This document shows, piece by piece, positions 23,726 through 23,911 of a DNA stretch of 64,000 nt. Under the pieces are notes generated by a model that was not told where the DNA came from, searched no databases, and saw nothing but the letters and a program-made list of their open reading frames with translations. The DNA comes from Eledone cirrhosa. Taxonomy: Eukaryota. The position numbers were made by a program, and so were the translations under genes. The DNA lies in contig OZ024751.1 in the NCBI GenBank assembly GCA_964016885.1, positions 18,352,001 to 18,416,000 on the forward strand, read 5' to 3'. Positions within the stretch are counted from its first letter, which is position 1; the number at the start of each line of letters is the position of its first letter.

Positions 23726-23911
23726 CGTTATTCCGGGTTGAATCGGAGGTAACCACAGTAAGTAAGGTACTCAATACATAGCAGAGTATAACAGTTTTAA
23801 TATAGATGAGATTCTACAGGACTAGAACTGTTTCATTCATTAGAAATCATCAGATGATTTCTAATGAATGAAACAGTTCTAGTCCTGTAGAATCTCATCT
23901 ATATTAAAACT
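23726..23911. mobile_element. Family A palindromic HHR element
   Basis: Perfect 59-bp arms (23793-23851 / 23853-23911) with a 1-nt centre at the HHR core. (TA)n on both sides. Confidence 0.85.

Follow-up and report, generated by a model that had tools for sequence, protein, structure and literature searches.

Palindromic insertions in Eledone cirrhosa: paired long and short arms of a short non-coding, likely Penelope-like element

The palindrome at 23793-23911 and its surroundings

The window, a stretch of 64,000 nucleotides of Eledone cirrhosa DNA, contains at 23793-23911 a palindrome that is self-complementary at 99.1% by BLAST and folds into 58 base pairs around a 3-nt centre (z -22.8). 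Its left arm extends 68 nt past the palindrome to 23725, and (TA)n lies at both ends. The palindrome family of this locus is called family A, with positions counted from the C of the core CTGATGA (position 0). On the sense strand of the family, the long arm (23725..23853, minus strand) reads from the hammerhead core at position 0 to a distal 3' end at +128, and the short arm (23853..23911, plus strand) from +2 to a proximal 3' end at +60. The 68-nt tail present on one arm only (23725..23792, minus strand) would span the interval between two putative reverse-transcription start sites, a reading based on the in vitro start sites described in PMC11167929. The turn lies at 23851..23853, where base 23853 is common to both arms as a 1-nt microhomology. 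Hammerhead remnants, called from the sequence and from how intact relatives and the short arm fold, occupy 23814..23890. The one on the long arm (23814..23853, minus strand) comprises the core and stems II and III, with a predicted cut between 23815 and 23814; the one on the short arm (23853..23890, plus strand) is without the first two core bases and would be cut between 23889 and 23890. Since this locus has no 5' strand of stem I, neither arm is an intact ribozyme.

The left (TA)n target run (23600..23724) is shared with a neighbouring insertion of a second family, J, at 23435..23592, in which a tail-only long arm stands head to head with a short arm without overlap. The right run (23912..23934) is followed by a palindrome of another hammerhead family. 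Further palindrome families lie in TA runs at 23943-24228, 39589-39864, 48737-48974, 11932-12364, 37981-38478, 37642-37900 and 39873-40009; most of the other palindrome families in the window carry minimal hammerheads and turn 20-80 nt above the core.

The 187 nt that include palindrome and tail are present as 100% identical copies on two other chromosomes. In raw Illumina reads from two samples, set against a one-armed reference, a strand switch was found at the core; one joint was supported by 40 and 38 reads, which had 2-3 starts, and further strand-switch joints were found beside it. These reads validate the palindromes as a class; the junction at 23793-23911 itself is unbridged among the listed reads and contigs, and reads fit either arm. 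The palindrome is real, and it is one of thousands derived from a short non-coding mobile element. That such structures arise as assembly artefacts, or by generic fold-back of DNA at (TA)n, is very improbable. Other inverted duplications centred on TA runs do occur in the window, and host DNA is briefly inverted on both sides at 4 of 121 inverted loci, as fold-back would have it. However, 116 of the 121 have no flank similarity (the fifth similar case is family J on both sides), the arms stop at family-specific ends and diverge with age, and strand-switch joints are present not only in the raw Illumina reads but also in contigs from two further runs. Unrelated DNA is duplicated in inverted orientation around TA or other simple repeats at 19744-20005, 42582-42928, 46079-46524 and 52074-52353, at locus L213 and in block 737-1242 of C21, and some of these duplications enclose whole elements.

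Abundance and ends of family A

A 27-mer of the family-A arm has 27,663 exact matches in the 3.0 Gb of genome searched, and at least 5,213 loci carry two cores head to head within 24 nt. The 3' ends fall at two fixed sites, +60 or +128. The 5' ends, determined at 50 loci, lie from -8 to +4 of the core with a peak at -5/-6. Long, source-type copies run at least 400 nt further upstream through non-coding repeats, and in 22 stretches read no ORF was found within 1.5 kb upstream, an ORF for reverse transcriptase and GIY-YIG included. Outer ends enter (TA)4 or more in 211 of 242 cases. In unselected DNA an inverted 5'-truncated copy stood beside the 5' end in 14 of 26 family-A events, and solo copies ended at either 3' site, the short one included.

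Other family-A loci of the window illustrate this range. Long and short arms are combined at 36438..36620 (loop TCAC, with a 6-nt deletion private to one arm) and at 26858..27049 (loop TCCC), and two short arms at 3839..3961 (loop TCCC). At 33428..33592 the short arm exceeds the long arm by about 15 nt on the 5' side. The locus at 41787..41912 stands alone in the window in having a long arm whose start coincides with the predicted cleavage site (+38). A solo copy at 32558..32623 (minus strand) ends at the short 3' end.

Head-to-tail joints were also present in reads, and L351 and L352 are compound loci. The head-to-tail joints in reads at L072:1770-1828 give a repeat unit of about 77 nt that surrounds the hammerhead, and a strand imbalance of 7,864 to 4,947 (count 12,811) hints at a tandem array somewhere. 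The long copies L162, L163 and L203 have in common more than 500 nt of degenerate TG/TA microsatellite upstream, so that the element spreads microsatellite sequence.

Arms match by locus but share subfamily rather than private variants

The preliminary description held that the two arms of a locus share variants specific to that locus. The individual matches were borne out: both arms at 23793-23911 carry the loop TAAT and GAATCTCATC, both arms at 36438 carry TCAC and GAAGCTCTTC, and both at 3841 carry TCCC. The arms are indeed paired by locus, the loop being identical in 43 of 50 loci against a shuffled mean of 6.2 (maximum 16 in 10,000). These were the first 50 of the 5,213 loci, fetched and parsed, and two of them are copies of one event; since their arm ends were over-extended into TA runs in this parse, the long and short counts given below come from other parses. 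In 81 inverted family-A events, a set not chosen for likeness to 23793-23911, arms of the same locus differed at 2.1 of 39 nt as against 6.6 between loci. Nor do the arms cluster by side, in line with the earlier expectation of pairing by locus: the differences in 39 nt were 6.34 for long-long, 6.32 for short-short and 6.33 for cross comparisons, and 1.94 within a locus. Clustering was judged by these distances instead of by a tree because 39 shared bases cannot resolve young copies.

The variants themselves, however, did not prove private. Among 304 variant calls present in both arms, 294 occurred in five or more loci, 10 in 2-4 and none in a single locus, and all 23 single-locus family-A variants in the 81 events were one-armed. 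In 75 of these events the nearest arm at another locus was as close as the partner or closer. The arms thus share their subfamily, that is, their template, rather than private mutations. Family J, which had been named without definition and was taken here as the abundant family at 13578, 25809, 33708 and 34249, behaved similarly. Within-locus matching was upheld, a 9-mer being common to both arms in 14 of 31 loci (shuffled 3.4, maximum 9); matching was weaker than in family A, and only 3 of 23 single-locus variants were found in both arms.

These distributions bear on two further explanations, which together appear highly improbable: that the palindrome itself is mobile, as a MITE-like element or a hairpin master, or that its arms were homogenised by gene conversion. 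Identical palindromes on several chromosomes would agree with a mobile palindrome, but the junctions are heterogeneous and independent of side. The centre of the 23793-23911 palindrome recurs at 21 loci, with the long arm to the left in 10, to the right in 9 and unclassed in 2, and 39 distinct centres were found among 50 loci; junctions therefore recur and are not inherited from one master. Gene conversion is disfavoured because no single-locus variant is found in both arms and because arm divergence rises with tail divergence (rho 0.59); one-arm variants are moreover evenly divided, 72 on long arms and 72 on short arms. Loop matching, variant sharing and independence of side together support the original proposal that the second arm was made at insertion, rather than by two insertions, as MITE TIRs or by later conversion, and we consider this very probable.

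Long and short arms are paired in three families

One arm had been described as running to the family 3' end and the other as stopping early. This asymmetry holds: long and short arms are combined in 69 of 81 family-A pairs, compared with at most half under independent draws (p 7e-11). Two short arms make up 11 of the remaining pairs, the locus at 3841 among them, and two long arms 1. The short site is read as a start site rather than a stop, because solo copies end there too. Pairs of two short arms differ more between the arms (3.6 versus 1.9 of 39) and may derive from two RNAs or be older. In one such pair, L271, the arms differ at a subfamily-diagnostic base.

The same pairing was found in 44 of 45 family-J pairs and in all 12 informative pairs of an autonomous Penelope-like element. 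This element, reached via a flank fragment and represented by 24,588 candidates, has a 775-codon frame with matches to RVT_1 (E 2.4e-6, just under its cut-off) and GIY-YIG (E 3.4e-6), and it has a minimal hammerhead, TA flanks and two 3' ends. The sample consisted of 10 head-to-head match pairs and 6 full-frame loci; both outer ends were visible in 12, one inverted arm was cut by the edge of the stretch, and 3 loci were without an inverted arm. The element is very abundant and young, with intact 775-codon frames (L307-L322; G000:C2:160755362-160757689). Its stem II is closed by the same U-U as that of family A, and its tail is about 50 nt. Its 3' end shares no sequence with families A or J, one autonomous family having been compared, and it therefore shows the mechanism, not a partnership. 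A fragment of a second Penelope-like lineage, with a C-terminal GIY-YIG, lies at L075:88-1270 (minus strand). The tails of families A and J have a 15-nt motif in common between their two 3' ends (14/15 identical, E 0.002; 23770-23790 in family A, and J tails such as those in the 13680 region and at L067), which on sequence grounds is a candidate protein-binding signal.

The extent of the arms in the 5' direction distinguishes between two ways of making the second arm that had been offered together, priming on both strands and snap-back of the cDNA. In snap-back a single cDNA begun at the distal site would fold near the core and copy itself to an AT-rich spot. Most family-A pairs are nearly symmetric, with overlaps of 0-4 nt, as this would predict; both arms end within 8 nt of each other in 62 of 78 pairs, which by themselves fit snap-back too, the sample being enriched for turns at the core. 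Yet short arms may hold sequence that their long arm does not have. In 8 of 78 family-A and 15 of 44 family-J pairs the long arm either consists of tail only or is exceeded by the short arm by more than 8 nt on the 5' side. The long arm reaches further in 8 of 78 and 4 of 44, the remaining pairs of both families have ends no more than 8 nt apart, and the arms do not overlap at all in 2 of 78 and 8 of 44, respectively. Among the autonomous pairs the short arm extends further 5' in 6 of 12, the long arm in 5, and they are equal in 1, with differences of up to kilobases; at L308 and L321 the short arm contains the whole 775-codon frame. Sequence on this scale confined to the short or to the long arm means that neither autonomous arm can be a copy of the other. 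Some of the small asymmetries could result from later deletions at the centre, but differences of kilobases could not, and snap-back is contradicted by L308, L316, L317 and L321 as well as by the solo copies with a short end. We regard it as very unlikely, only slightly less so than the mobile-palindrome and fold-back explanations. Priming on both strands is the part of the original pair that stands, and the arms are in all probability two separately primed cDNAs. That a single RNA molecule templated both is favoured only slightly over the use of two.

The turn and the hammerhead motif

In three family-A subfamilies the type I hammerhead three-way fold is the minimum-energy structure, and stem I covaries. 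The folds are weak (z 0.99 to -1.66), and the G10.1-C11.1 pair is replaced by U-U. Among the 150 of 299 Rfam matches listed there was no hammerhead; the matches listed were of microRNA type and driven by microsatellites or hairpins. No hammerhead core was found in family J, where two core patterns gave 4 and 6 scattered matches. In family J, for example at 33708-33817, an apparent 3' half of a hammerhead is kept (GAAAC, a palindromic loop and GUC), but no 5' core was found.

The turn had been placed at or near the ribozyme. By position this is correct for family A: 864 kb of unselected DNA contained 14 of its inverted events, and 12 of them turn there. It is not correct for the cleavage site, for family J, in which no core was found, or for the autonomous element, which turns anywhere over 3.5 kb. 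The family-A cut is predicted after +38, about 38 nt away from the turn, and the evidence did not support an involvement of the ribozyme in turning.

A putative promoter and an additional G at the turn

The source-type copies point to a different explanation of the turn. In 44 of 50 of them, across upstream variants, the TATA box TATAAATA is found 30-33 nt upstream of base -6, with which hammerhead stem I begins, and in 44 of 49 CCAAT is found 80-89 nt upstream of it. Of 33 source copies, 30 have C at base -7 and 3 have T. Genome-wide there were 1,843 cases in which this base was not C, and among the first 100 of these, inspected by eye, it was G in 76. Solo copies carry the additional G directly after the TA run, and at 147 loci it is found on both arms. 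In the first 50 of the loci with G on both arms, again judged by eye, one base lay between the two Gs in 38, 2-4 bases in 12, and zero in none; a 1-nt centre is too short for a hairpin loop and is a further point against snap-back. Loci of this kind paired long with short in 14 of 15 cases. Read depth rises about 7-fold at the 5' edge of the arms. Family J has G in 15 of 28 non-T cases, 38 of its 52 T cases continue into source sequence, and a TATA-like motif was seen by eye 27-31 nt upstream. An extra 5' G at full-length L1 insertions is described as a mark of cap copying (PMC11702581). Judged from genomic sequence, the turn is likely to be the start of a capped RNA. A splice acceptor at the 5' edge was considered, since 34 of 34 source copies have YAG in front of the start, and was rejected; there is no constant upstream exon, and the AG is part of stem I.

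The 5' edge could instead be set by stem I itself, still with priming at two ends, if the end of the cDNA paired with the copy of stem I, left the RNA and added 1-4 templated bases. We consider this unlikely, although it is less so than the other alternatives. In the main subfamily stem-I self-priming would likewise add a G at this place, and the A that follows it. The extra bases are often the continuation of stem I, ATG precedes the start in 14 of the 76 G cases (by eye), and tail-only arms are joined through stem I at L360. In the subfamilies where the two explanations differ, there were about 6 G versus 3 T by eye. Pairing with stem I leaves unexplained, however, the TATA box at a constant 30-33 nt, the same G and TATA-like motif in family J without a hammerhead core, and the G directly after the TA run in solo copies.

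A model of two-ended insertion

The palindrome is best read, with reasonable confidence, as head-to-head copies of a short non-coding Penelope-like element, laid down in one two-ended insertion and turning at the start of the capped RNA. Source copies bearing the promoter would be transcribed by RNA polymerase II into a capped RNA at least about 135 nt long. Transcription would begin with the opening base of stem I, and a TATA box that only the long source copies keep would lie about 30 nt upstream. The (TA)n target would be nicked on both strands by a Penelope-type dimer, and one DNA end would prime at the distal site (+128) and the other at the proximal site (+60). Synthesis of both cDNAs would continue as far as the cap, with the proximal cDNA displaced by the distal one, and their ends would be trimmed by a few bases and end-joined. 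Junctions at 50 loci show overlaps of 0-4 nt or insertions. The progeny would be without the promoter and usually without stem I, and a distal cDNA that stopped early would give the non-overlapping type, as at 23435-23592. The ribozyme would remain uncleaved and be incidental to the turn. Family A is likely to be a non-autonomous Penelope-like element, although the one autonomous family compared has no 3' sequence in common with it.

A more general version of the model, which we put forward tentatively and hold slightly less likely to be right than wrong, would make Penelope-type integration obligately two-ended. The dimer would hold one RNA, the two ends would start at different fixed sites and both would copy to the cap, with the tail and the inverted pLTR as two traces of a single event. 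A SINE-like class of short capped polymerase-II RNAs, transcribed from a TATA promoter upstream, could exploit this; its full-length copies would be near-perfect palindromes and would have seeded thousands of hairpin loci.

Comparison with known systems

Endonuclease-bearing Penelope-like elements (Penelope/Poseidon, Neptune, Nematis and Naiad) are described as resembling family A in the inverted copy, the tail at one end, the hammerhead near the 3' end and the (TA)n targets. An inverted 5'-truncated copy by the 5' end and a one-sided tail are among their described features (PMC8557442, PMC2377424, PMC8969392), and they bear minimal hammerheads (PMC4209133). Family A differs from them in having no ORF, in a turn concentrated at one point and in its tail, whose 68 nt exceed the described length of 30-40 nt (PMC8557442, PMC2377424). 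Its promoter motif is of the upstream TATA type, in contrast to the TATA-less internal promoter of D. virilis Penelope. How the tandem and inverted structures of Penelope-like elements form is named as an open question in PMC8557442. In vitro, the Anolis Poseidon protein PAc cuts both strands and extends them from two internal start sites that bound the tail, with a preference for uncleaved RNA, all of which resembles family A; the start site is described as the same for both strands, which counts against the model (PMC11167929). The described PAc work did not cover the coupling of start sites within one event or the joining of cDNAs, both of which are proposed here for family A (PMC11167929). 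A term search of the main text of a cephalopod repeat annotation returned no mention of ribozyme or palindrome (PMC13282606).

Animal non-LTR retrozymes are likewise described as non-coding, with a type I hammerhead and a proposed dependence on Penelope (PMC7229834; bioRxiv 10.64898/2026.07.22.740005), but family A does not consist of tandem monomers with hammerheads, and its ends lie off the cleavage site. MITEs are short, non-coding, hairpin-forming and flanked by TA as well. Unlike MITEs, family A has unequal arms, a variable centre, solos of either arm and no fixed TIRs bounding a fixed unit. The arms of L1 twin-priming products are not known to overlap, whereas family-A arms mostly do and are without poly(A), the non-overlapping type being confined to the few cases counted above (2/78 in A, 8/44 in J). 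This overlap requires strand displacement or two RNAs. In the use of a second primer on the other DNA end, an internal start, an end-joined inversion junction and an extra 5' G, L1 twin priming is otherwise alike (PMC11702581). Family A works like Penelope insertion and like twin priming with overlap.

What is new here is the strict pairing of long with short arms, together with the likely cap signature, since inverted copies with a one-sided tail were known already. For annotation, the hairpins call for caution, as they resemble MITEs or microRNA precursors, the latter with a sub-threshold Rfam match, and yet are retro-insertions. That three unrelated families strictly combine long with short arms, and that both arms carry a likely cap base, yields sharp predictions for the in vitro system already available, and a natural template of 135 nt could be used for testing them. 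Two-ended copying, if true, would explain the long-known inverted copies of Penelope-type elements.
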